Assembly (NCBI RefSeq): GCF_024700885.2 | Contig: NZ_CP117016.1 | Length of the DNA stretch: 64,000 nucleotides | Reading direction: 5' to 3' (one strand) | Origin: Escherichia coli | GTDB lineage: Bacteria; Pseudomonadota; Gammaproteobacteria; Enterobacterales; Enterobacteriaceae | Shown here: one piece after another, positions 8,247-42,700 of the stretch | Numbering within the stretch: the stretch's first letter is position 1 | How the letters are laid out: the number at the start of each line of letters is the position of its first letter | Program-made: the position numbers and the translations under genes | The notes under the pieces: model-generated | Databases searched by the model: none | The model's input: only the letters and a program-made list of their open reading frames with translations | Told to the model about the DNA's origin: nothing

Positions 8247-9493
8247 TGAGGTGTACTGGCAATAGCGGACACTACCATTTGTTCTTTTTTTAAGCAGCCA
8301 TCTGATGATATTTTTCCCTGAAGGCTGCCGGGGAGATATTCCCCAGACGAGAGTGACGACGCTGACGATTGTAGAAAATCTCAATGTATTCCCGTATTAC
8401 TGAGATGGCTTCATCCCGGTTATTAAAACGATAGTGGCTCAGGCTCTCATTTTTCAGCGTTCCCCAGAAGCTTTCCATCGGAGCGTTGTCGTAACAGTTA
8501 CCTTTACGCGACATTGATGTTTTCAGACCAAACTGCTCCTGTATGACACGGTAATCGTATGCGCAGTACTGTGAACCTCGATCAGAGTGGTGGATTAGCC
8601 CGGCAGGTGGGCGCTGGCTCCTGAGCGCCATAAACAGGGCTTTACCTGTCAGCTCTTTTGTCATGCGCTCTCCCATGGCGTAGCCGACAATTTCGCACGT
8701 ATAAACATCTTTGATGCCAGCGAGGTACAACCATCCCTCCTGTGTGGCAACATACGTCAGGTCCGCCACCCAGACCTGATTTGGTGCTGTAGGAGCGAAC
8801 GTCTGGTTCAGCAGATTTGGCGCAACTGGCAGATTGTGGTTCGAGTTCGTAGTCGCTCTGAACTTGCGTTTCTGCTTACAGCGTAGCCTTAGCTCCTTAC
8901 GAAGACGTGCCAGTCGGTCACGACCAACGATGATGCCATTCTCTGCCAGCTCCGTCTGGAGCTGCCGGGTTCCATATGTTTCGCGAGTGCGGATATGCGC
9001 CACCTTAATCTCCAGTTTTAGCCGCTCATCACTTTGTTTTCTGTCTGAGGGTTCATGCTGTACCCAGTTGTAATAACCGCTCCTGGATACACCAAATACC
9101 TGACACATCGCTTCAATGGGAAATTGTTGTCGCCATTGTTCGATTAACGCGTATTTTTCAGCGACTCCTGTGCAATTTAATATATCTCGCTCAAGGCGAG
9201 CTTCATTTAACGCCTTACGCAGTTGCAGAATTTCAGATTCCAGTTCAGCCACCGTGCGGGAACCAGGAGTACCGAGCCCTTTTCTGGCGGCGGTAACCCA
9301 TTGTCCTAAAGTGCCTTCAGGAAGAGATAATCGGGAAGCACCTTCACTGATCGAAAGTTGATTTTCAAGAACCGTTCTGACAGCTTCGGCTTTGAACTCT
9401 TTAGAGTAACGTTGGGTTTTTCTGCTCATTATTAGCTCCTTCTGATGCCATTCTATTTCAGGAAGGAGTGTCCGTTAAACTCAGGCTACCTCA
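8247..9493 (-). mobile_element. IS3-family insertion sequence (IS600-like), about 1.25 kb
   Basis: Imperfect terminal inverted repeats TGAGGT...CGGACACT at both ends flanking the transposase ORF. Confidence 0.7.
8290..9429 (-). CDS. IS3-family transposase, OrfA and OrfB fused in one 379-aa frame
   Basis: OrfA-like HTH and leucine zipper (LQLRKALNEARLERDIL) continuous with DDE OrfB (DLTYV, HSDRGSQY, GNCYDNAPMESFW). Confidence 0.85.
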   Translation of the reverse strand: MSRKTQRYSKEFKAEAVRTVLENQLSISEGASRLSLPEGTLGQWVTAARKGLGTPGSRTVAELESEILQLRKALNEARLERDILNCTGVAEKYALIEQWRQQFPIEAMCQVFGVSRSGYYNWVQHEPSDRKQSDERLKLEIKVAHIRTRETYGTRQLQTELAENGIIVGRDRLARLRKELRLRCKQKRKFRATTNSNHNLPVAPNLLNQTFAPTAPNQVWVADLTYVATQEGWLYLAGIKDVYTCEIVGYAMGERMTKELTGKALFMALRSQRPPAGLIHHSDRGSQYCAYDYRVIQEQFGLKTSMSRKGNCYDNAPMESFWGTLKNESLSHYRFNNRDEAISVIREYIEIFYNRQRRHSRLGNISPAAFREKYHQMAA

Positions 9494-9575
9494 TTGGTTC
9501 CCACTACTTATTTGGTGGACACCACTTTGTCTAATTCGTCAGATTCTGACCAGACGGTTCAGGCTGTACGCTTAC
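9494..9575. repeat. 82-bp IS66-family terminal fragment (solo end), identical to 17521-17602
   Basis: Ends in revcomp GTAAGCGTACAGC; identical to the left end of the IS66 copy at 15315-17602. Confidence 0.75.
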
Positions 9576-9609
9576 AAACAACTAGTGGAAATACTTGTAC
9601 TTTATAATT

Positions 9610-10554
9610 TCAAGGGTACGGGTCCGCTTCGTTTGATTTGCGTGTTTTTAACAATTTTAAAACCCAGACATACTGTTCCGGATGTGGCCCCACCAAAATT
9701 TCCACTGTTTTGTTCATTTGTCGGGCAATCATTTTATTGTCCGCGCTGGCAATGCAAGCATCCATTGGTGGCCGAATTTCAATAGTCAGGAGATGTTTTT
9801 TTTCATCATAAACCGGGAAAAGTGGTATAATCATAGCCTGACTGATGTTCATCAGACGTCCAATGATTGGTAATGTCGCTTTATAGGTCGCAAAAAAATC
9901 AGCAAATTCACTGTATTCAGGACCATGATCCTGATCTGGGAGGTAATATCCCCAGTATCCCTGGCGTACTGACTGAATAAATGGTTTTATCCCATCCTCC
10001 CGGGCATGTAAGCGCCCCCCGAATTTACGCCGTACTGAATTCCAGACATAATCAATCACTGGATTTCGTTGCTGATGAAACATGGCGGCCATTTTTTTTC
10101 CCTGAGCTGCCAGCAACATTGCAGGAATATCCACGCTCCAGCCATGGGGAACCAGAAAAATCACATTTCTATTATTGTGTCGAATTTCCTCAAGAATTTC
10201 GAGGCCTTTCCAGAACACTCGTTTCTGGAACTTTTCCGGACCACGAATTGCCAGTTCTGCCATCATCACTATGGATTGCAATGCTGTGGCAAACATTTTG
10301 TCGACAATTATTTCCCGTTCTGTATCACTCTTTTCTGGGAAACAAAGCGATAAATTAATCGTCGCCCTGCGACGAGCTTTTTTGCTCAATCTGCCCACCC
10401 AACGCCCTATTTTTGCCAAGACAGGATCTCTGAATGAAGGGGGAAACATTGAAATACCTGCAATCATTCCCAAAAGGAACCATGTAGACCAGTAAACAGG
10501 GGAAAGGTAATTTTTCTTAAATTCAGGAATAAACTCAGATTTATATTTTTTCAT
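9610..10554 (-). CDS. Lipid A secondary acyltransferase, LpxM/MsbB family (msbB2-like paralog)
   Basis: Lauroyl/myristoyl acyltransferase motifs (FLVPHGWSVD, YLPDQDHGPE); virK fragment immediately upstream as in shf-virK-msbB2 modules. Confidence 0.8.
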   Translation of the reverse strand: MKKYKSEFIPEFKKNYLSPVYWSTWFLLGMIAGISMFPPSFRDPVLAKIGRWVGRLSKKARRRATINLSLCFPEKSDTEREIIVDKMFATALQSIVMMAELAIRGPEKFQKRVFWKGLEILEEIRHNNRNVIFLVPHGWSVDIPAMLLAAQGKKMAAMFHQQRNPVIDYVWNSVRRKFGGRLHAREDGIKPFIQSVRQGYWGYYLPDQDHGPEYSEFADFFATYKATLPIIGRLMNISQAMIIPLFPVYDEKKHLLTIEIRPPMDACIASADNKMIARQMNKTVEILVGPHPEQYVWVLKLLKTRKSNEADPYP

Positions 10555-10618
10555 TATTTAGTGCGAATGCCTCTACCAAAATTATCATTACTGTTTTATT
10601 CAGAGAATACATCAAACC

Positions 10619-11233
10619 TTAATTTAAATTCTGATGTTCTGAGTGTACAGGATATGCATCCAAAGAGCGGATAGTAGTTTCATGGATATAATCCAGCAAA
10701 GCGTATCGTTTTCGGTACTCAGAGCGTTTTTTACTGGCTATATCGCTTAGCGGCTTTCGAATCACCTGGGTTGGTAATCTGTACCAGTCACCACAGGTTT
10801 TTCCTGCTACAGACTCCCAGAAATCACTATAGACCGCAACAAAGGTTTTGCGTTTCTGATACCAGTATCTCAATTGCCGGAAAACATGACTGTGCTCACT
10901 GACTGCCAGACACTCAGAGATATTGCAAGCTTTCATCAACGCACAAAATGCTTCAAAAATAATCCGTTTTGGGAAAATCCCATAACAGGCCCGGGTTGCG
11001 CACCGAATAACATCAGGTCCGGTATTTTTAGGGGCTCCCTGTAATCCGCCAATAAAAGCAATGTGTCCATTTTGAGTCAGAATGACTGAAAATGTTAACC
11101 GGGCAATAACTGTTTTATTGTAAAACAATGACAACATCAACTCTCCTTCCCGGTCAAAACCACTGGGAGAACACTGGATATCAAAATTCTCTCCATCTTT
11201 CCCGATGAATTGGACTAATGATACCGATTTTTG
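10619..11233 (-). pseudogene. virK: virK-like (DUF535) gene, C-terminal part only, cut by IS1
   Basis: Open frame runs from the IS1 boundary (...FIGKDGENFDIQCSP...) to the stop at 10619; N-terminal half absent. Confidence 0.55.
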
Positions 11234-11288
11234 GGTAATGCTGCCAACTTACTGATTTAGTGTATGATGGTGATTTTAAGGTGCTTGC

Positions 11289-11564
11289 GTGGCTTCCATT
11301 TCCATCAGATGTCCTTCCTGCTCCGCTACTGAAGGCGTGGTGCGTAACGGCAAAAGCACTGCCGGACATCAGCGCTATCTCTGCTCTCATTGCCGTAAAA
11401 CATGGCAACTACAGTTCACTTACACCGCCTCTCAGCCCGGTACGCACCAGAAAATCATTGATATGGCCATGAATGGCGTCGGATGTCGCGCCAGTGCACG
11501 CATTATGGGCGTTGGCCTCAACACGGTTTTACGTCACTTAAAAAACTCAGGTCGCAGTCGGTAA
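11289..11564 (+). CDS. insA: IS1 InsA
   Basis: [40 protein letters not shown]... Confidence 0.9.
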
Positions 11565-11986
11565 CCTCGCGCATACAACCGGGCAGTGATGTGATTGTCT
11601 GCGCTGAAATGGACGAACAGTGGGGCTACGTCGGTGCTAAATCACGTCAGCGCTGGCTGTTTTACGCGTATGACAGGATACGGAGGACGGTTGTGGCGCA
11701 CGTCTTCGGTGAACGCACTCTGGCCACACTGGAGCGTCTTCTGAGCCTGCTGTCGGCCTTTGAGGTCGTGGTATAGATGACGGATGGCTGGCCGCTGTAT
11801 GAATCACGCCTGAAGGGAAAGCTGCACGTTATCAGCAAGCGTTACACTCAGCGCATTGAGCGACATAATCTGAATCTGAGACAACATCTGGCAAGGCTGG
11901 GACGGAAGTCACTGTCGTTCTCAAAATCGGTGGAGCTGCATGACAAGGTCATCGGGCATTATCTGAACATAAAACACTATCAGTAA
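11483..11986 (+). pseudogene. insB: IS1 InsB frame with premature stop (TAG at 11774-11776)
   Basis: Copy 2 reads ...VVIWMTDGW (TGG); copy 1 reads ...VVV(stop)MTDGW (TAG). Confidence 0.85.
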
Positions 11987-12071
11987 GTTGGAGTCATTAC
12001 CTCCTCCCGAACTCAAAGCTATCATACAGATAATTACTGGTTAACCCTATATAGGGCATTTTAAAGTGTTG

Positions 12072-12408
12072 TGATCTTACCCAGCAATAGTGGACACGCG
12101 GCTAAGTGAGTAAACTCTCAGTCAGAGGTGACTCACAAGACAAAACAGTTTCAACCAGTAAAAAAACGTAAACACCATTCGCATGAATTTCGTAGTTAAG
12201 ATCTGAAGCTTGCAGAATGCATCGGTGTTACTGCCGGAGTCCGTGAACTTAGTCTGCATGAATCACCACAGCTTTACATCTGTCGCAGTAAACAGCAAAA
12301 TCAGCAAACTTACTTAATTATATCGAGTGCGATTACAATCGCTGGCGATGGTACAGTTGGTGTGGCGGTCTCAGTCCGGAACAATTTGAAAATCAGAATC
12401 TCACTTAA
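12072..12408 (+). mobile_element. IS3 remnant with large internal deletion (left end and orfA 5' joined to orfB 3' end; right IR missing)
   Basis: TGATCTTACCCAGCAATAGTGGACACGCGGCTAAGTGAGTAAACTCTCAGTCAGAGGTGACTCACA then ...[33 protein letters not shown] tail. Confidence 0.7.
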
Positions 12409-17468: not shown

Positions 17469-17602
17469 AGGGCAGCCTTTTCACCTGCCGGGAGTCACAT
17501 TTTTCTGCATATCTGACACTTTGGTTCCCACTACTTATTTGGTGGACACCACTTTGTCTAATTCGTCAGATTCTGACCAGACGGTTCAGGCTGTACGCTT
17601 AC

Positions 17603-33706: not shown

Positions 33707-36598
33707 ATGATTGGTACAACACCTTATCATGCGAAATATTTTGCGCATGAACTTTCCATTCTCCATTCAAACAATGGGGTGGACCGTCTGTCTCAATCGC
33801 TGTTTGATGCAAGCGTAGATCTAAATCCTCATCAAATTGAGGCGGCTCTTTTTGCTATTGAAAATCCGCTAAGCAAAGGTGTTGTGCTTGCCGATGAAGT
33901 TGGTTTAGGTAAAACCATTGAAGCGGGGTTAGTGCTTTGCCAGTTGTGGGCTGAAAGAAAACGTAAACTGTTGATCATTTGTCCTGCTTCACTGCGTCGC
34001 CAATGGGCGAGCGAGTTACAGGAAAAGTTCAATCTACCTTCTCAGGTGTTGGACGCGAAAACGTATAGCCAGCTTCAAAAAGAAGGGATCCATAATCCCT
34101 TAAATAATAAATCGATCACTATCATGTCATACCACTATGCTGCTCGGTTAGAAGAAAAATTGGTGGCTGAAATGTGGGATCTGGTTGTTATCGACGAAGC
34201 CCATAAACTGCGTAATGCTCATCGAGAAAGTAACAAAATGGGGCAAGCGTTAAAGCGTGCGCTTGATGGGCGGAAAAAATTACTACTGACCGCAACGCCT
34301 TTACAGAATTCGTTAATGGAACTGTATGGCATGTCGACGCTTATAGATGAACATACCTTCGGCGAAGTTAAAGCGTTCAGAAAGCAATATATGCAGGCAG
34401 ATAGCGATATTGCGGAGTTGAAGGGGCGATTGTCGCGTTTTATCAAACGAACTTTACGCAAGAATGTGCTGGAGTACATCAAGTATACAGAACGTAAAGC
34501 GATCACTATTCCTTTCTATCCGAGCGAACAGGAGCAGGATCTTTATGAACGCGTACAAAAATTGCTTGAACGTGAGGATAGCTATGCCTTACCAAAACGA
34601 CACCGGCATCTGACGGGGCTTATTCTCAGAAAGCTACTTTCCTCAAGTACGAAAGCTGTATTGAATAACTTGCAGATCCTTAAGAGTCGTTTAGAAAGGT
34701 TAAAGCTGGAAGGTATCGTTGAAGATGATATGAACATCATCCAACAGATCATAATGGATGACGATCTTGAAGATGACATCGTGGAAGATGCCGAATCAGT
34801 GGCTTTAGATACCGAGTGCAAAGTTGTCGATTCAGACGCGCTTCAGGCAGAAATCAATGAGCTGGAATCACTCATTGTCAAAGCAGAACAGATTGGCACT
34901 GATACCAAATCAAAAGAGTTGCTTTCTGGCCTGGAGCAAGGTTTTGCACAGCTTGCCGAAATGGGGGCTGCAAAAAAAGTCATCATCTTCACGGAGTCAA
35001 TGCGAACTCAACAGTATCTTGCACATTTTCTGGAAAACAATGGCTACCAGGGGAAAGTAGTAACCTTTAGTGGCACAAACAATACACCGCAGGCAAACAA
35101 GATCTACCAGCAATGGCGCGAGGAATATCAGGGATCTTCTCGTATTACCGGGTCGGCGCAAATTGATAAACGCTCGGCTTTGATCGACCACTTCAAAGAT
35201 CATGCTGAAATCATGATAGCTACAGAAGCTGCAGCTGAAGGGGTGAACCTGCAATTTTGTTCGCTACTGATCAATTACGATTTACCCTGGAACCCACAAC
35301 GCATTGAACAGCGTATTGGACGTTGTCACCGATACGGGCAAAAATTTGATGTGGTTGTTATTAACTTCCTCAATCAGCGAAACCAGGCCGATCAACGCGT
35401 TCTTGAACTCTTAACTGAAAAGTTCAGCCTGTTTGATGGCGTGTTTGGCGCATCGGATAGTGTGCTTGGCAGCATAGAAAATGGTGTGGATTTTGAAAAA
35501 AGGATCCAGTCAATTTATGAGTCATGCCGTACCCCCGAGGAGATAGAGCTGGCTTTTGAAAGGTTGCAGAAAGAGCTGGAAGATGAAATCAATCTCAAGA
35601 TGCAGAAGACGCAAGAACAGTTGCTTGAGCATTTTGATGAAGATATTCACGATATCCTTAAAATAAGGCTTGATGAAGCTCGGGAGCGTCTGGATAAAGT
35701 CGGTCGTTGGTTTTGGGCCGTGACCTGTCAGCAGCTCAAACAATATGCTGATTTTGATCATGAGCATCATCGTTTCACTTTACGTGAATCAGTAAATGAA
35801 CTGCCTGTCGGGCAGTACCAGCTGTTGCGCAAAGATGGTAGGCAAAATAGTGCGTTACAAATGCAGGATCACCACAGTTTTGCATATCGGATCAATCATC
35901 CGCTGGGTGAGTACGTCATTGAGGGGGCTAAGGTCCAGGAGACGAAAACAGCTGAAGTCATCTTCGATTACAGTAACCACACAACGAAAGTCTCGGTGGC
36001 TGAGCAGCTGAAAGGGCAATCAGGGTGGTTAACACTAAATTTGCTTACTGTTGATGCGTTTAACAGGCAGCAATTTTTAGTCTTTACCGCAAAAACTGAC
36101 AACGGACGTGTGGTAGATGGTGAAGCTTGTAAACGTCTGTTCAACTTGTCTGCAATAACCAACGAAAAGCTGGATAATTCGGCAAGTTCAGATGCATTAC
36201 CTGATGACTTGATCTTACTCAAGAACAGGCAAATTGACGCCAGACTTGCGGAAGTTCTGGAGCAGAACAATGTCCTTTTTGAAGCTGAAAGAGATAAGCT
36301 GGAAAAATGGGCTGAAGATATGATCTTTGCGGCGGAAGAAGCATTACGCGATACCAAAATGCAAATCAAGTCGTTAAAGCGAGAAGCCAGACTGGCGCAA
36401 TCGATGGAAGAACAAAAGCAAAACCAGGAAAAGCTGAAGCTACTGGAACGGCAGCAGAAACGCCAACGTATGGAAATTTTTGACATTGAAGATGAGATCG
36501 CTGACAAGCGGGATGAACTCATCAGTGCCCTTGAAGAGCGGATGAAGCAAAAAACGGATATCACCGAGCTTTTTTCCATCCGCTGGAAAGTTATTTAA
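33707..36598 (+). CDS. SNF2-family DEAH-box ATPase/helicase (963 aa) with C-terminal coiled-coil tail
   Basis: Walker A DEVGLGKT (33893-33916), motif II VVIDEAHKLRN (DEAH 34193-34204), motif III LLLTATPLQNS, helicase-C NLQFCSLLINYDLPWNPQRIEQRIGRCHRYGQ; AGAGAGA RBS. Confidence 0.85.
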   Translation: MIGTTPYHAKYFAHELSILHSNNGVDRLSQSLFDASVDLNPHQIEAALFAIENPLSKGVVLADEVGLGKTIEAGLVLCQLWAERKRKLLIICPASLRRQWASELQEKFNLPSQVLDAKTYSQLQKEGIHNPLNNKSITIMSYHYAARLEEKLVAEMWDLVVIDEAHKLRNAHRESNKMGQALKRALDGRKKLLLTATPLQNSLMELYGMSTLIDEHTFGEVKAFRKQYMQADSDIAELKGRLSRFIKRTLRKNVLEYIKYTERKAITIPFYPSEQEQDLYERVQKLLEREDSYALPKRHRHLTGLILRKLLSSSTKAVLNNLQILKSRLERLKLEGIVEDDMNIIQQIIMDDDLEDDIVEDAESVALDTECKVVDSDALQAEINELESLIVKAEQIGTDTKSKELLSGLEQGFAQLAEMGAAKKVIIFTESMRTQQYLAHFLENNGYQGKVVTFSGTNNTPQANKIYQQWREEYQGSSRITGSAQIDKRSALIDHFKDHAEIMIATEAAAEGVNLQFCSLLINYDLPWNPQRIEQRIGRCHRYGQKFDVVVINFLNQRNQADQRVLELLTEKFSLFDGVFGASDSVLGSIENGVDFEKRIQSIYESCRTPEEIELAFERLQKELEDEINLKMQKTQEQLLEHFDEDIHDILKIRLDEARERLDKVGRWFWAVTCQQLKQYADFDHEHHRFTLRESVNELPVGQYQLLRKDGRQNSALQMQDHHSFAYRINHPLGEYVIEGAKVQETKTAEVIFDYSNHTTKVSVAEQLKGQSGWLTLNLLTVDAFNRQQFLVFTAKTDNGRVVDGEACKRLFNLSAITNEKLDNSASSDALPDDLILLKNRQIDARLAEVLEQNNVLFEAERDKLEKWAEDMIFAAEEALRDTKMQIKSLKREARLAQSMEEQKQNQEKLKLLERQQKRQRMEIFDIEDEIADKRDELISALEERMKQKTDITELFSIRWKVI

Positions 36599-36603
36599 TT
36601 GAT

Positions 36604-39600
36604 TTGAAAGAGAAAATAATGAGTAAGTACAACGAATTAGTTAAGAAGCTAAAAGAAATTTTTCAGATTGATCGACCAGAACTGGATTTCGGTATTTATC
36701 GTATTTTAAATGCACGTGCTGATGAAATTAACGACTATCTGGATAATAAGCTGAAGGCCAAAATCCAGTCTGCGCTGGCGGATGCAGGAAATGCCAATAA
36801 ATCAGAATTAGAACATCAGTTGCAACTGACAATAAAAGCGGCAACTGATGCGGGTGTGGACCCTGCTGATAGCCCGAAAGTACAGGAGCTTAAAAAGCAA
36901 CTGGCGGCTATGGCATCCGGAGCAAATGAGCATGAAAATGCAGTATTTTCCCATCTGCTGACTTTCTTTTCGCGTTATTATGACAACGGCGATTTTATCA
37001 GCAAACGCCGTTATAAAGGTAATACCTACGCCATCCCTTATTCTGGCGAAGAAGTGATGTTGCACTGGGCAAATAAGGACCAGTACTACATTAAAAGCGG
37101 TGAAAACTTTGCTAATTATTCATTTAAATTAGATGATGGTCGTAAAGTTAGCTTTAAATTGCTCGCAGCGGACACAGCAAAAGATAACCGTAAAGATAAT
37201 GAATTAGATCGCTGCTTTGTACTTATTGAGCCGCATGTTCGTACCAAAATTGATGAAGAAGGCGATGAGTACGAACAAGAATATAAGCCAGTAGAAGTGG
37301 TGAAAACTTCATCTGTGGTTGACGGTAAACTCGTTGAAACAGAAGAGTTAGTTATTCACTTCGAATATAAGGCCATGAAAAAGGGCACTAAGCAGGATGC
37401 TTTAGTGCAGTCCGCTATTTCAACAATTCTGGCTGATAAAACAGTTCAACAGCATTGGGTTGATCTTGCTAAACGTGCGCCAACAGAAAAAAATCCGTCA
37501 CGTACAGAGTTGGAGCGTCATCTTACAACTTATACCCAGCGTAATACAGCAGACTACTTTATTCATAAAGATCTCGGTGGTTTTTTAACTAACGAACTGG
37601 ATTTTTATATTAAAAATGAAGTAATGAATCTCGATAATGTGCAAAATGCAGAAGTGTTTGCCAATATTGAGAAACAATTGCGCATGATTCAATGTTTGCG
37701 TACTGTTGCGCTGGAACTCATTGCATTTTTGGCACAAATTGAGAATTTCCAGAAGAAACTTTGGACTAAGAAGAAGTTTGTTGTTTCAAGTAATTACTAT
37801 ATTACTATGGACAAAATAAGTTCAGAGTTTTACAGTGAAATAATTAATAATGAAAAAATAGTCCAAGAATGGATTGAATTAGGCATCTTAGATGAGAAGC
37901 CATCTACCTCTGATGTGGAGTTGCTCAAGTTTGCAACAGTTAATTTATCTCATTTAAACGGAGATCTAAGGAAAAAAATATTAAATAGTATCAATGATAT
38001 TGACGATAATGTTGATGGCGTTTTTATTAATGGTGATAATTATCAAGCGTTAAATCTTTTGAAGAAAAAATATAATTCCGTAATTGATTGTGTCCATATA
38101 GATCCACCATATAACACAGATACTAGTGGTTTTTTATATAAAAATAGCTTTAAGCATTCAAGTTGGCTGAGTATGATGGATAGCCGTTTGCTTTTTGTTA
38201 AAAATTTACTCAGTGAAAATGGTGTATTTTTTTGTCATATTGATGAAAATGAATATGAGCGACTTTATTTAATTAATAAACAGTTAGGTCTTATCGATGC
38301 AGGGACAATTATTTGGGATAAACGCAATCCCATGAATGGTGGTAGTGGCATTGCGATTCAACATGAATATACTACTTGTTTTACAAAGAACATGATTTCT
38401 ATTAATAAGAAAAATGAGAATGTATTAGAAATACTCGAATATGCAAAATTAATTAAGAATAAATATCCTGTAATTAACAGTGAAGCAAAGAAAAAATTTT
38501 ATGATTGGGTAACAAAGAATAAAAAACTTACTGGAGGTGAACAAGCTTACAAATATATCGATGAGAAAGGTCGAGTGTACCAGAGTGTCAGCCTCCGTGC
38601 CCCAGAGCCAAGGACTGACAAGAAATTCTATATACCATTAATTCATCCAGTTACCGGGAAACCATGCGCTATGCCACCAAATGGTTTTTCTCGTACCCCA
38701 GAAACATTAAAAGATATGATGGATAAGGGGGATATACTATTTGGTGTTGATGAAACAACGCAACCTAGACAGAAAGCATATTTATATGCTGACGCTAAAA
38801 AGCAAATAACATCAATAATTCAGGATGCTAAAAAAGGAAAAACTCAAACAACTCATCTTGGAATTGATTTTCCTTATTGTCACTCAACTTCTTTATATAA
38901 TTATTTAATTGGGAGTGCATCTCATAATAAAAATGAGATAATATTAGATTTTTTTGCTGGTTCAGGAACAAGTGGCCACTCAGTCATAGAGTTGAATCGT
39001 AAGGATGCGGGTTCAAGGAAATATATACTTGTTGAACAGGGGGAGTATGCACAAAATGTAACTTTAAGCAGGTTGAGAAAAGTTATATTCAGTAGCAATT
39101 GGAAAGATGGTAAAGCTATGGATTCAACGACAGGCTCATCTCATATACTTAAAGTTATGAAAATAGAAAGTTACGAAGATGTATTAAATAGCCTTCGATT
39201 TGAACAACAAAAAGAAATAAAAGATCTTTTTGATACAGTGAATGAATCAGTAGCAAATGAGTATTTAATAAAATATATGCTTGAAACAGAAAGCAAAGGT
39301 TCACTACTCAGTACTGATAATTTCAAAAAACCATTTAACTACGAAATGGATATTGCGACGGATTCCGCCGGTGCCACTGAGCGTAAAAACATCGATTTAG
39401 TTGAAACTTTCAACTATCTCATTGGTTTACATGTGAAATCCATCGAATCCAATATCGAACGTGGCTATGTGCGTGTTGAAGGAATGCTACCAACAGGCGA
39501 GCGTACCCTTATTCTGTGGCGCGATTGCGACAAGATCGGTTATGAAGAATTGAATAAATATGCCAACCGATTCGATTTATATGCAAAAGAAAACACGTTC

Positions 39601-39741
39601 GACGTTATCTATATCAATGGCGATCATAACTTACCTACCGCCTTTACTGTTGATGAAGAAGACGGCGAGATTGTTCGTAGCCTGAAAATCCGCCAGATCG
39701 AACCTGAATTCTTGAACCTGATGTTTGCGGAGGAGGTTTAA
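36604..39741 (+). CDS. Large beta-class DNA methyltransferase (N6-adenine/N4-cytosine type; 1045 aa) with about 490-aa N-terminal extension
   Basis: Motif IV HIDPPYNTD (38101-38112) precedes motif I ILDFFAGSGTSG (38951-38977), the order seen in Type III Mod; starts 6 bp after the SNF2 stop. Confidence 0.8.
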   Translation: MKEKIMSKYNELVKKLKEIFQIDRPELDFGIYRILNARADEINDYLDNKLKAKIQSALADAGNANKSELEHQLQLTIKAATDAGVDPADSPKVQELKKQLAAMASGANEHENAVFSHLLTFFSRYYDNGDFISKRRYKGNTYAIPYSGEEVMLHWANKDQYYIKSGENFANYSFKLDDGRKVSFKLLAADTAKDNRKDNELDRCFVLIEPHVRTKIDEEGDEYEQEYKPVEVVKTSSVVDGKLVETEELVIHFEYKAMKKGTKQDALVQSAISTILADKTVQQHWVDLAKRAPTEKNPSRTELERHLTTYTQRNTADYFIHKDLGGFLTNELDFYIKNEVMNLDNVQNAEVFANIEKQLRMIQCLRTVALELIAFLAQIENFQKKLWTKKKFVVSSNYYITMDKISSEFYSEIINNEKIVQEWIELGILDEKPSTSDVELLKFATVNLSHLNGDLRKKILNSINDIDDNVDGVFINGDNYQALNLLKKKYNSVIDCVHIDPPYNTDTSGFLYKNSFKHSSWLSMMDSRLLFVKNLLSENGVFFCHIDENEYERLYLINKQLGLIDAGTIIWDKRNPMNGGSGIAIQHEYTTCFTKNMISINKKNENVLEILEYAKLIKNKYPVINSEAKKKFYDWVTKNKKLTGGEQAYKYIDEKGRVYQSVSLRAPEPRTDKKFYIPLIHPVTGKPCAMPPNGFSRTPETLKDMMDKGDILFGVDETTQPRQKAYLYADAKKQITSIIQDAKKGKTQTTHLGIDFPYCHSTSLYNYLIGSASHNKNEIILDFFAGSGTSGHSVIELNRKDAGSRKYILVEQGEYAQNVTLSRLRKVIFSSNWKDGKAMDSTTGSSHILKVMKIESYEDVLNSLRFEQQKEIKDLFDTVNESVANEYLIKYMLETESKGSLLSTDNFKKPFNYEMDIATDSAGATERKNIDLVETFNYLIGLHVKSIESNIERGYVRVEGMLPTGERTLILWRDCDKIGYEELNKYANRFDLYAKENTFDVIYINGDHNLPTAFTVDEEDGEIVRSLKIRQIEPEFLNLMFAEEV

Positions 39742-39743
39742 GA

Positions 39744-42700
39744 ATGGCTAAAAAACCGACCACCGGTAAAGCTGTTAAAAAAGAGACAAACAGCAAACTG
39801 AGCTTTCATAAGCAACTGGTTTTGAACCGCTTTATGTTCCATTTTTTTAAAGATGGCACATTGCAAGGTTTAAAAAATCGGTTAGGTGAAGATCGCTTTG
39901 AAGGCATCCATGAAGATGGCCAAAGCTTGTTCTTCCATGAGCTGAGTAACTATTTATTCGAGGTCGATCTTATCGATCTCGATGAACTGCGTCGTTACGA
40001 TCTCAATATCGTACAGCACTGGCAGCAGATAACTGAGCACCGTAATCGCAAAGAAGACACCGTGCTGAATATGAAATATTTTCAGTACTTGTCGCTTCTG
40101 TTTACCGAGATCTACCTGGACTGGTACTTCAATCGTAAACAGCAATTACTCGATGGGCTAAATAACGAGCTGGCAGCATACAATGCTGAAAATGATAAAA
40201 CAGCAAAAGACCGGGCTAATCAGTTCAAATCATACATTCTAGATGACTTGAATAAACTTGCATACTGGAACGCTACCGGTTCGGGTAAAACACTGCTATT
40301 GCATGTCAATATTTTGCAATATTTACATTATTTCCAGAACGGTAATACCCACCATTACCCGGATAAAATCATCCTGCTTACGCCGGATGAACGCCTGTCG
40401 AAGCAACATTTAGATGAGCTGGAAAACTCAGGATTTACCCAATACCAGTTATTCGATAAGAGTAAATCTGCGCCCTTCAAAGGCACGATTGAAGTTATTG
40501 ATATCAATAAACTTGCCGATGAAATGGGTGACAAAACTGTTGCCGTTGAGGCATTTGAAGGCAACAATCTGGTTCTGATTGATGAAGGGCATAAAGGCAC
40601 CGGAAGTGCTGCTGGTGCCTGGATGCGCCGTCGTGACAAATTAACACGTGACGGATTTGCGTTTGAATATTCAGCAACTTTTGGCCAGGCAGTAGCCGGT
40701 GGCAATAATGTTGAGGCAGTTGAAACAGAAATTCAGAAGAAAAAAGCAAAGCTGCTTTTTGAAACAACGGCCTTAGGTAAACTGAACGAAGAAGAGTTAG
40801 CGCAAATAGCATTAACCAGCGAAGAAAAACGAGATGCGCGTATTCAGGCGACGCGAGAGGTCTATGGAAAATCGATTCTGTTCGATTACTCCTATAAATT
40901 CTTCTATGAGGATGGTTATGGTAAAGAATCACTGATTCTTAACCTTAATCCTGAAGAGGATAAAAAAGATGAGCGTCGGTATGAGTATTTTACCGCGTGT
41001 TTGCTCAGCTTTTATCAGCAACAATATTTATTCAATAAGAATAAAGAAAAATTAAGTGAATTTAATATCGAAAAACCGCTGTGGGTTTTTGTCGGTAATA
41101 CGGTAAGTGGTGAAGATTCAGACATTCACGCAGTATTGCGTTTTTTAGCATGGTTTTTAAACCACGAAACGCAGGCAAAAGCGTGGATTAACGATCTCAT
41201 TAAAAATAAAGCGCGAATCCTCGATACCAAAGAGCGTAACATTTTTGAAAATCGCTTTACTGCACTAATGAACGCTCCGGAAGATATCTACGCAGATATT
41301 CTTTCTCGCTTGTTTAACACCACTCACTCTGGTCAGCGACTGCGAGTTCTGAATTTAATAGGCAGTAAAGGTGAACTGGCATTACAGGTTGGTGAGGCCG
41401 AACCGTTTGGCCTTATCAATATTGGTGATGCACCGTCTCTTTACAAAATGTGTGAAGAGGATACGACATTTGATTATCAGAGAGATGATTTTGCAAAGTC
41501 ACTCTTTCATACGTTAAATGACAAAGACTCGCGACTACATATTTTGATCGGCTCGCGAAAATTTACTGAAGGCTGGAGCAGTTGGCGCGTCTCAACGATG
41601 GGATTGCTCAATATGGGCCGTGGAGAAGGTTCACAGATCATTCAGTTATTTGGTCGTGGCGTACGCCTTAAAGGTCGCAATTATTCTTTGAAACGCAGTA
41701 CACCCGGTGAGCGTCCGAAAGGGTTGCATCTGGAAAAATTAGAGACACTGAATGTATTCGGTGTACGTGCCGATTACATGGCAACCTTTAAACAATACCT
41801 GGAAGATGAAGGGATTACGCCAAGTGACGAGATCCTTGAGCTGAATTTTGAAACTCGGCCAAATATGCCAGCAACCAGGCTTAAAACACTTAAGCTTAAA
41901 GATGGTTATAAAGATAATCAAAGACTCGGCTTTAAACGTGTCTATTTTCCCGAATTGTATGAAGTTCCTGCTGATTTTCAGGGGAAAATTAAGCAGCCGC
42001 ATATTAAGCTGGACTTATACCCGAAACTTGAGTCGATTGATACCAGCAGAAAAGGGGACAATACTCCGGTTAACGTGCGCAATGAAGCGAAGTTAGATTA
42101 TAAAATCATTAGTGCATTTGATTTTGATCGGCTTTATCTCGCCATTCAGAATTATAAACTACAACGCGGCTGGTCAAATTTACGTGTGGATAAACAACGT
42201 TTGATCGACTTTTGTACCGGTAAGACAAAGATCGGAAATAGTTGGTATACCCTTTTGATTCCAGCTTCAGAGCTTGAGATTAAGCAATATGCAGATATTG
42301 CTAAGCAGGAAGATATTATGCTTCGTCTGCTGACTGATTATACTGATCGCTTTTACAACACCTTGAAAAATGCTTATGAAGGTCAGTTTTATGAAGTCAC
42401 GCAGGTGAAAGAAGATGATCCTGGTATGATCAAAATGTACCATTTCGAGATCGAAGAAACTGATGATGGGTTGGCTTATGCCAGTCGGCTGGAACAATTA
42501 CAACAATTGGTCATCGACGGCGAAATCGGTAAAGCAAAATCCTGGAGTGCATCCGGGATGGTTGCTATTACCTTTGATAAACATCTCTATTACCCGCTTC
42601 TTTCGATTGAAAAAAATGCCAATATACCGCTAAAAATGCGACCGGCAGCACTTGGTGCGCCAAGCGAGATTACTTTTGTTCAGGATCTTCAGTCTTTTGT

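Follow-up and report, generated by a model that had tools for sequence, protein, structure and literature searches.

A chromosomal msbB2-type lipid A acyltransferase gene beside a virK remnant at an IS1F-bounded deletion in Escherichia coli

An intact lipid A acyltransferase gene of the LpxM/MsbB family lies in this DNA next to a virK gene that is broken exactly at the edge of an IS1 element. The arrangement raises the question of whether the acyltransferase gene (hereafter lpxM2) is a genuine second copy, how virK came to be truncated and whether the surviving gene could still modify lipid A acylation. Members of the LpxM family are inner-membrane enzymes that use myristoyl-ACP as donor and add the sixth, secondary acyl chain to Kdo2-(lauroyl)-lipid IVA, which gives hexa-acylated lipid A. 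The analysis covered the whole 64-kb stretch of DNA (the window) together with 5426 complete E. coli genomes.

A second lpxM gene in a chromosomal island

The gene, the spacer before it and its downstream surroundings consist of the following features.

8247-9493, minus strand: IS600-like element of the IS3 family, downstream of lpxM2 (NCBIfam IS3 transposase match, 399 bits)
9494-9575: 82-bp segment between the end of the IS600-like element and the pCoo-type module homology, present as an exact copy at 17521-17602
9610-10554, minus strand: lpxM2, an msbB2-type lipid A myristoyltransferase gene; intact open reading frame of 314 codons plus stop
10555-10618, minus strand: virK-lpxM2 intergenic spacer; a weak ribosome-binding site (GAGG) precedes the ATG by about 15 nt

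The lpxM2 product scored 444 bits against TIGR02208 (lauroyl-Kdo2-lipid IVA myristoyltransferase; cut-off 336) and 523.6 bits against PRK08943 (cut-off 337), both NCBIfam models, and the Pfam Lip_A_acyltrans domain (PF03279) spans its full length (model positions 2-295 of 295, E 7e-96). The protein is RefSeq WP_024946613.1, which is named lpxM in strains MLI114 and JE86-ST05. The HX4(D/E) motif of lysophospholipid-type acyltransferases is present as H137-G-W-S-V-D142, invariant with K-12 LpxM, and aligns with PHFGTWE of A. baumannii LpxM (5KN7), the segment with the His/Glu dyad; in the companion entry 5KNK this Glu is an Ala. Residues 21-39 (YWSTWFLLGMIAGISMFPP), a candidate hydrophobic membrane anchor, correspond to the N-terminal segment of K-12 LpxM. 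Their Kyte-Doolittle mean is about 1.0 by hand calculation, and the maximum of a simple 19-mer scan lies elsewhere in the protein. The earlier note had described an LpxM/MsbB-family acyltransferase with an intact reading frame, a description borne out by the family scores above cut-off and the retained catalytic motif; no catalytic residue of the HX4D motif is missing on alignment.

The core lpxM gene of K-12 lies between pykA and mepM and was found in 5425 of the 5426 complete genomes. That lpxM2 might be this housekeeping gene in its normal chromosomal context is suggested by its location on a chromosome and by its RefSeq name. However, its product is only 70% identical in amino-acid sequence to K-12 LpxM (b1855), its neighbors are insertion sequences, the virK remnant and a BCCT transporter gene rather than pykA and mepM, and the K-12-type gene is present separately in essentially every genome, whereas lpxM2 is found in about 10%. 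The housekeeping identity was ruled out on these grounds and carries next to no probability. The degree of identity and the location of the core gene elsewhere make lpxM2 a genuine second copy, as had been supposed, and the near-universal core gene would make it a redundant one. The two proteins share family, length class and the HX4D motif and are expected to catalyze the same reaction; they differ in locus, that of the core gene being pykA-lpxM-mepM, and in that the core gene is universal and lpxM2 accessory.

Alignment to both plasmid msbB2 and chromosomal lpxM places the gene with the msbB2 type. Its DNA is 97.2-98.0% identical to lpxM of Shigella virulence plasmids and about 99% identical to that of ETEC plasmids such as pCoo. 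Plasmids of the pO157 type also carry a second lpxM, but its DNA identity is just about 70.7% across 81% of the gene, which places it in a separate clade. MsbB2 of S. flexneri pINV/pWR100 has the same length of 314 residues and differs by 10 substitutions (97.4% DNA identity); V53 of the lpxM2 product is the residue of the Shigella allele as well. On S. flexneri pINV, virK is likewise followed by msbB2 after a 64-bp spacer, and the spacer of the window shows no differences from that of pCoo, one base from that of CE10 and four bases from that of pINV. Unlike lpxM2, the S. flexneri gene is plasmid-borne and is transcribed together with shf, rfbU and virK from a PhoPQ/low-Mg2+ promoter (PMC5775216, PMC12562796). 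Comparison of lpxM2 with the plasmid alleles gave dN/dS values of 0.12-0.17, the mark of long-term purifying selection in these alignments. The enzyme looks catalytically competent, its sequence carrying no sign of activity loss, and the difference of only 10 residues from Shigella MsbB2, which is described as a myristoyl transferase (PMC12562796, PMC2808357), leads us to infer that it would transfer myristate to Kdo2-(lauroyl)-lipid IVA. The gene would then encode a catalytically competent second late acyltransferase of lipid A.

The window is colinear throughout its 64 kb with the chromosome of E. coli MLI114 (NZ_CP117013.1; 99.997% identity), and an origin of this DNA from a plasmid was thereby ruled out. 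The RefSeq annotation of MLI114 gives lpxM, a virK pseudogene ('missing N-terminus') and an IS1 family transposase. The surroundings are those of the leuX/KpLE2 island region (nanC, nanM, fim genes, CP4-like genes and Ag43), and no tRNA gene is present within the 64-kb window. These comparisons show that the shf-capU-virK-msbB2 operon of which lpxM2 is a part is a chromosomal copy associated with leuX. Elsewhere in the window are a defense-type trio at 33707-43124 on the plus strand (a DrmD-like SNF2 helicase, a large type III-like methyltransferase and a type III restriction enzyme) and, adjoining it, a gene annotated as a phosphorothioate-binding HNH endonuclease (43786-44715, minus strand). 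The only Rfam match in the window is IS102 RNA (RF00124; 25226-25462, plus strand, 74.6 bits), located just upstream of the Ag43/Cah autotransporter gene; the Rfam scan gave no match in or near the lpxM2 locus.

An lpxM-virK segment was found in 537 of the 5426 complete genomes (about 10%) at 601 places, 504 of them chromosomal and 97 on plasmids. The full shf-capU-virK-lpxM block at a coverage of at least 80% is present in 432 genomes, including EAEC 042, O104:H4 C227-11 and CE10. The chromosomal shf-rfbU-virK-msbB2 locus of EAEC 042 was described in the genome paper of that strain (Chaudhuri et al. 2010; PMC2808357), and its promoter is regulated by PhoPQ, Mg2+ and temperature (PMC2808357). 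The EAEC 042 locus and those of CE10, C227-11, AR_0149 and CV839-06 consist of the same DNA as the window (99.8-99.9% identity over lpxM plus the 3' part of virK) and have the same IS600-like element and BCCT transporter gene on the lpxM side. At these loci the four genes are all retained, as are the promoter region and fec, whereas in the window the DNA upstream of virK codon 113 is missing up to the IS1F element described below. Of the four colinear genes of the shf-capU(rfbU/wabB)-virK-msbB2 operon, the window thus retains only msbB2 and 65% of virK. The earlier note had compared the msbB2-virK pairing to the modules of Shigella and EAEC virulence plasmids. The pairing stands, given the 97.4% identity to pINV msbB2 and the DUF535 virK remnant, but the copy at hand is chromosomal rather than plasmid-borne.

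The IS600-like element has 27-nt inverted repeats (8247-8273 and 9467-9493), is 99.4% identical to the K-12 IS600 fragment and occupies the same place in CE10, AR_0149 and CV839-06. Its open reading frame (8290-9429, minus strand) encodes a single fused 379-residue transposase instead of the usual orfA/orfB pair with frameshift, and the copy in CE10, annotated as 'frameshifted', exceeds the element in length by 14 bp. Homology to pCoo-type plasmids begins at 9576. The second copy of the preceding 82-bp segment lies 8 kb away, beside an IS66-family remnant. Note that lpxM2, its pairing with virK, its chromosomal location and the exact truncated layout are already present in public annotation and the literature; the present analysis adds only the reconstruction of the deletion and a candidate fusion promoter.

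Truncation of virK by a deletion from a resident IS1F

The upstream side of lpxM2 is occupied by two further features.

10619-11233, minus strand: virK remnant, codons 113-316 of 316; in frame and free of stops, without a start codon of its own at the break
11234-12001, plus strand: IS1F, 768 bp (NCBIfam IS1 transposase match); insA intact, insB frame broken by a stop

The virK remnant is 99% identical to residues 113-316 of the 316-residue VirK of pCoo and matches positions 91-278 of the 281 positions of the Pfam DUF535 model (PF04393, E 4e-68), a full-length domain being absent. These matches agree with the earlier assignment of a DUF535 virK-like gene beside the acyltransferase. Residues 1-112 are lost (112 of 316 codons, 35%), and the remnant is a pseudogene. 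An internal AAGGAG-N5-ATG (11148-11135, minus strand) could yield a 172-residue fragment.

The left inverted repeat of IS1F (GGTAATGCTGCCAACTTACTG) begins at 11234 and abuts the virK break, so that the deletion joint is the edge of the element itself. No target-site duplication is present around IS1F, the 9 bp on its two flanks being unrelated (CGATTTTTG versus TCCTCCCGA). The element has no mismatches to the IS1F that stands beside ykiE-fecI at the undeleted locus of strain M217 and five mismatches to K-12 IS1F. Its right flank is ancestral: the junction is common to 2063 genomes and is therefore old, and in CV839-06, M217 and E2865 the same gene fragments, ymgB/ariR-like gene and phytase-like esterase gene follow IS1F as in the window. 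These three strains are the proper comparators for the deletion. K-12 IS1F, whose left flank is the same, was dropped as a direct comparator on account of its right flank, which is yjhU and unlike that of the window.

In CE10, AR_0149 and CV839-06 the gene order is BCCT transporter, IS600-like element, lpxM, virK, capU, shf, an IS3-family element, a small open reading frame, fecEDCBA-fecR-fecI, ykiE and IS1F. Aligned with CV839-06, the window has the same arrangement except for a single uninterrupted block of 12,335 bp that it lacks, with the left end of IS1F as one boundary and virK codon 112/113 as the other. The DNA lost with this block comprises the 5' third of virK, capU, shf, the region upstream of shf, the IS3-family element, the small open reading frame, fecIRABCDE and ykiE, and no shf or capU DNA remains in the 64-kb window.

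This comparison shows that virK was truncated by a deletion running outward from a pre-existing IS1F and not by an insertion. The earlier note had IS1 removing the 5' half of virK; IS1F does abut the break at 11234, but the loss is 35% rather than half and the event was a deletion. A simple insertion of IS1 into virK, with the remainder of the operon lost by unrelated events, would account for the element standing exactly at the break. Such an insertion should have left a 9-bp target duplication, which is absent, and the element is the IS1F already resident there, which retains the ancestral flank on its right, shared by 2063 genomes, and has a sequence free of mismatches to the copy at the undeleted locus. 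Moreover, the missing DNA is a single contiguous block ending at IS1F. We consider this explanation highly improbable. Recombination between two IS1 copies, which would give a chimeric element, was rejected, as the element is of the IS1F type over its whole length and matches the undeleted-locus copy without a mismatch.

Retention of a complete IS1F with its ancestral flank, contiguous loss and the absence of a target duplication are together the signature of an IS1-promoted adjacent deletion. IS1 adjacent deletions without direct repeats are documented in a review (PMC9330008, citing Turlan & Chandler 1995), and in these, as in the window, the element is kept, one flank remains ancestral and the other is joined to a distant point. 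The window differs from the documented cases in that its IS1F cannot itself have been the source of the transposase, a stop interrupting the insB frame in the window as well as in the undeleted genomes. Transposase would have come from another IS1 in trans, or some other end-specific mechanism acted.

Further observations concern the same elements. The joint of virK remnant and IS1F carries two IS1F alleles: that of the window is the M217 allele, and that of the strain named ST648 differs at five positions and is K-12-like. Two alleles on one joint suggest later recombination or gene conversion across it. In K-12, the region upstream of yjhV-fecE holds just an IS600 fragment (insM) and pieces of IS911B, which may be the scar of a loss of the same shf-msbB2 module. 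The ferric-citrate uptake operon fec is absent at this locus in the lineage that carries the joint. The sole other IS1 in the window is of the IS1A type (49127-49894; 69 mismatches to IS1F) and abuts a fimD fragment without its N-terminus, with nanC about 1.4 kb off on the other side (about 47041-50787). The genes from fimB to the 5' part of fimD are absent near this copy, and the site looks like another IS1-adjacent deletion, one that broke the type 1 fimbrial operon.

Loss of the shf promoter and possible expression of lpxM2

In Shigella the four genes form one operon, with the transcription start and a PhoP box upstream of shf (PMC12562796, PMC5775216), and expression is best in low Mg2+ (PMC7355660). 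A pgdA(shf)::tetRA insertion upstream is polar on the operon (PMC4267944). With the promoter placed according to these descriptions (PMC12562796, PMC5775216), the region upstream of shf lies within the deleted 12,335 bp. As the PhoPQ-dependent promoter is deleted, any effect of lpxM2 on lipid A needs a new promoter. The deletion from the resident IS1F thus removed shf, capU, virK codons 1-112, the PhoPQ promoter and fec in one event and left msbB2 as an intact, promoter-orphaned open reading frame. Any remaining transcription would no longer be regulated by Mg2+ and PhoPQ. A candidate for its source lies on the joint.

11218-11247, minus strand: candidate fusion promoter, TTGGCA-18-TATCAT, sigma-70-like

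The candidate -35 hexamer TTGGCA (11247-11242) lies inside the left inverted repeat of IS1F and the candidate -10 hexamer TATCAT (11223-11218) in the virK remnant; the spacer is 18 nt, and a transcription start is predicted near 11211. This is the best sigma-70-like site in 9300-12100 (10 of 12 positions), on the correct strand and exactly on the joint. However, the number of promoter-like sites in that interval is at chance level (7 versus 5.2 +/- 2.8 expected from shuffled sequence). In an endpoint control, the joint was slid over every possible deletion endpoint that keeps lpxM (n = 13,015). A -10 hexamer with a match of at least 5 of 6 at a spacing of 16-18 nt arose at 116 of these (0.9%), and at 2.2% of the endpoints within virK. 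As IS1 favors targets rich in AT, a -10-like flank is likelier to arise by chance, and this control is biased accordingly. Fusion promoters of IS1 have been documented (Prentki et al. 1986, cited by PMC9330008) and, as here, have a -35-like hexamer in the terminal inverted repeat; the promoter of the window is a sequence prediction. Given the chance-level site count, the long spacer and the AT bias, the fusion promoter is a lead and not a result.

The exact joint of virK remnant and IS1F is present in 46 of the 5426 genomes, one of them named 'ST648'. Allele counts are based on the 44 single-piece matches that span the joint. Three of these, MLI114 among them, are identical to the window. Another 35 differ solely by a 1-bp deletion at 10795 that frameshifts the virK remnant and leaves the LpxM protein unchanged. 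The in-frame form of the remnant, seen in the window and in MLI114, 200164 and 20AR0300, is the older version. The lpxM2 DNA is identical in 38 of the 44, and the lineage is thus too young to show selection, a test of which is uninformative. In other lineages lpxM2 is interrupted by IS1 or persists only as fragments, so the gene is dispensable. In the strain named ST648, lpxM is flagged as a pseudogene because of two insertions of one base, in homopolymer runs of C6 and T8. Assembly errors are the probable cause, and the flag was not counted as evidence of decay.

On balance we lean slightly toward an lpxM2 that is competent and expressed at some level. The most likely source of expression would be the candidate fusion promoter on the joint, giving low constitutive expression; the contribution to lipid A would be redundant with that of the core LpxM (LpxM1) and visible mainly in an lpxM1 mutant. 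There is a substantial, if lesser, chance that the gene is a silent relic, which is intact only because the deletion is recent, has no useful transcription without the shf promoter and is turning into a pseudogene. In favor of a relic, the operon is transcribed largely from the PhoP promoter that precedes shf, and insertions upstream have polar effects (PMC4267944, PMC5775216). The adjacent virK remnant is frameshifted in most genomes with the joint, the interrupted and fragmentary copies in other lineages show lpxM2 to be dispensable, and the few differences among chromosomal lpxM2 alleles are mostly nonsynonymous (2 of 2, 4 of 5 and 2 of 2), although their numbers do not suffice to test for selection. 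Against a silent gene, lpxM2 has remained unchanged while the shorter virK remnant has already been hit, and just 0.9% of endpoints would, like the actual joint, have set a good -10 at a suitable distance from the IS1 -35. A stronger proposal, that the IS1F deletion rewired msbB2 from PhoPQ/low-Mg2+ induction to constitutive expression in the lineage with the joint, and that this endpoint was perhaps retained since it kept msbB2 expressed, is in our view doubtful.

Possible consequences for lipid A in E. coli

Knowledge of the LpxM family is unchanged by lpxM2, and the practical value of the finding is limited. A second lpxM of this kind is present in about 10% of complete E. coli genomes and is mostly chromosomal. 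In strains that carry it, deletion of the core lpxM alone may not give penta-acylated, low-endotoxin lipid A, and the same problem of a second copy is already known in Shigella (PMC4155660). As control by Mg2+ and PhoPQ is lost in the lineage with the joint, the contribution of lpxM2 there is not predictable from the Shigella work. For the biology of this lineage, the loss of fec by the same deletion may matter more than the fate of msbB2.
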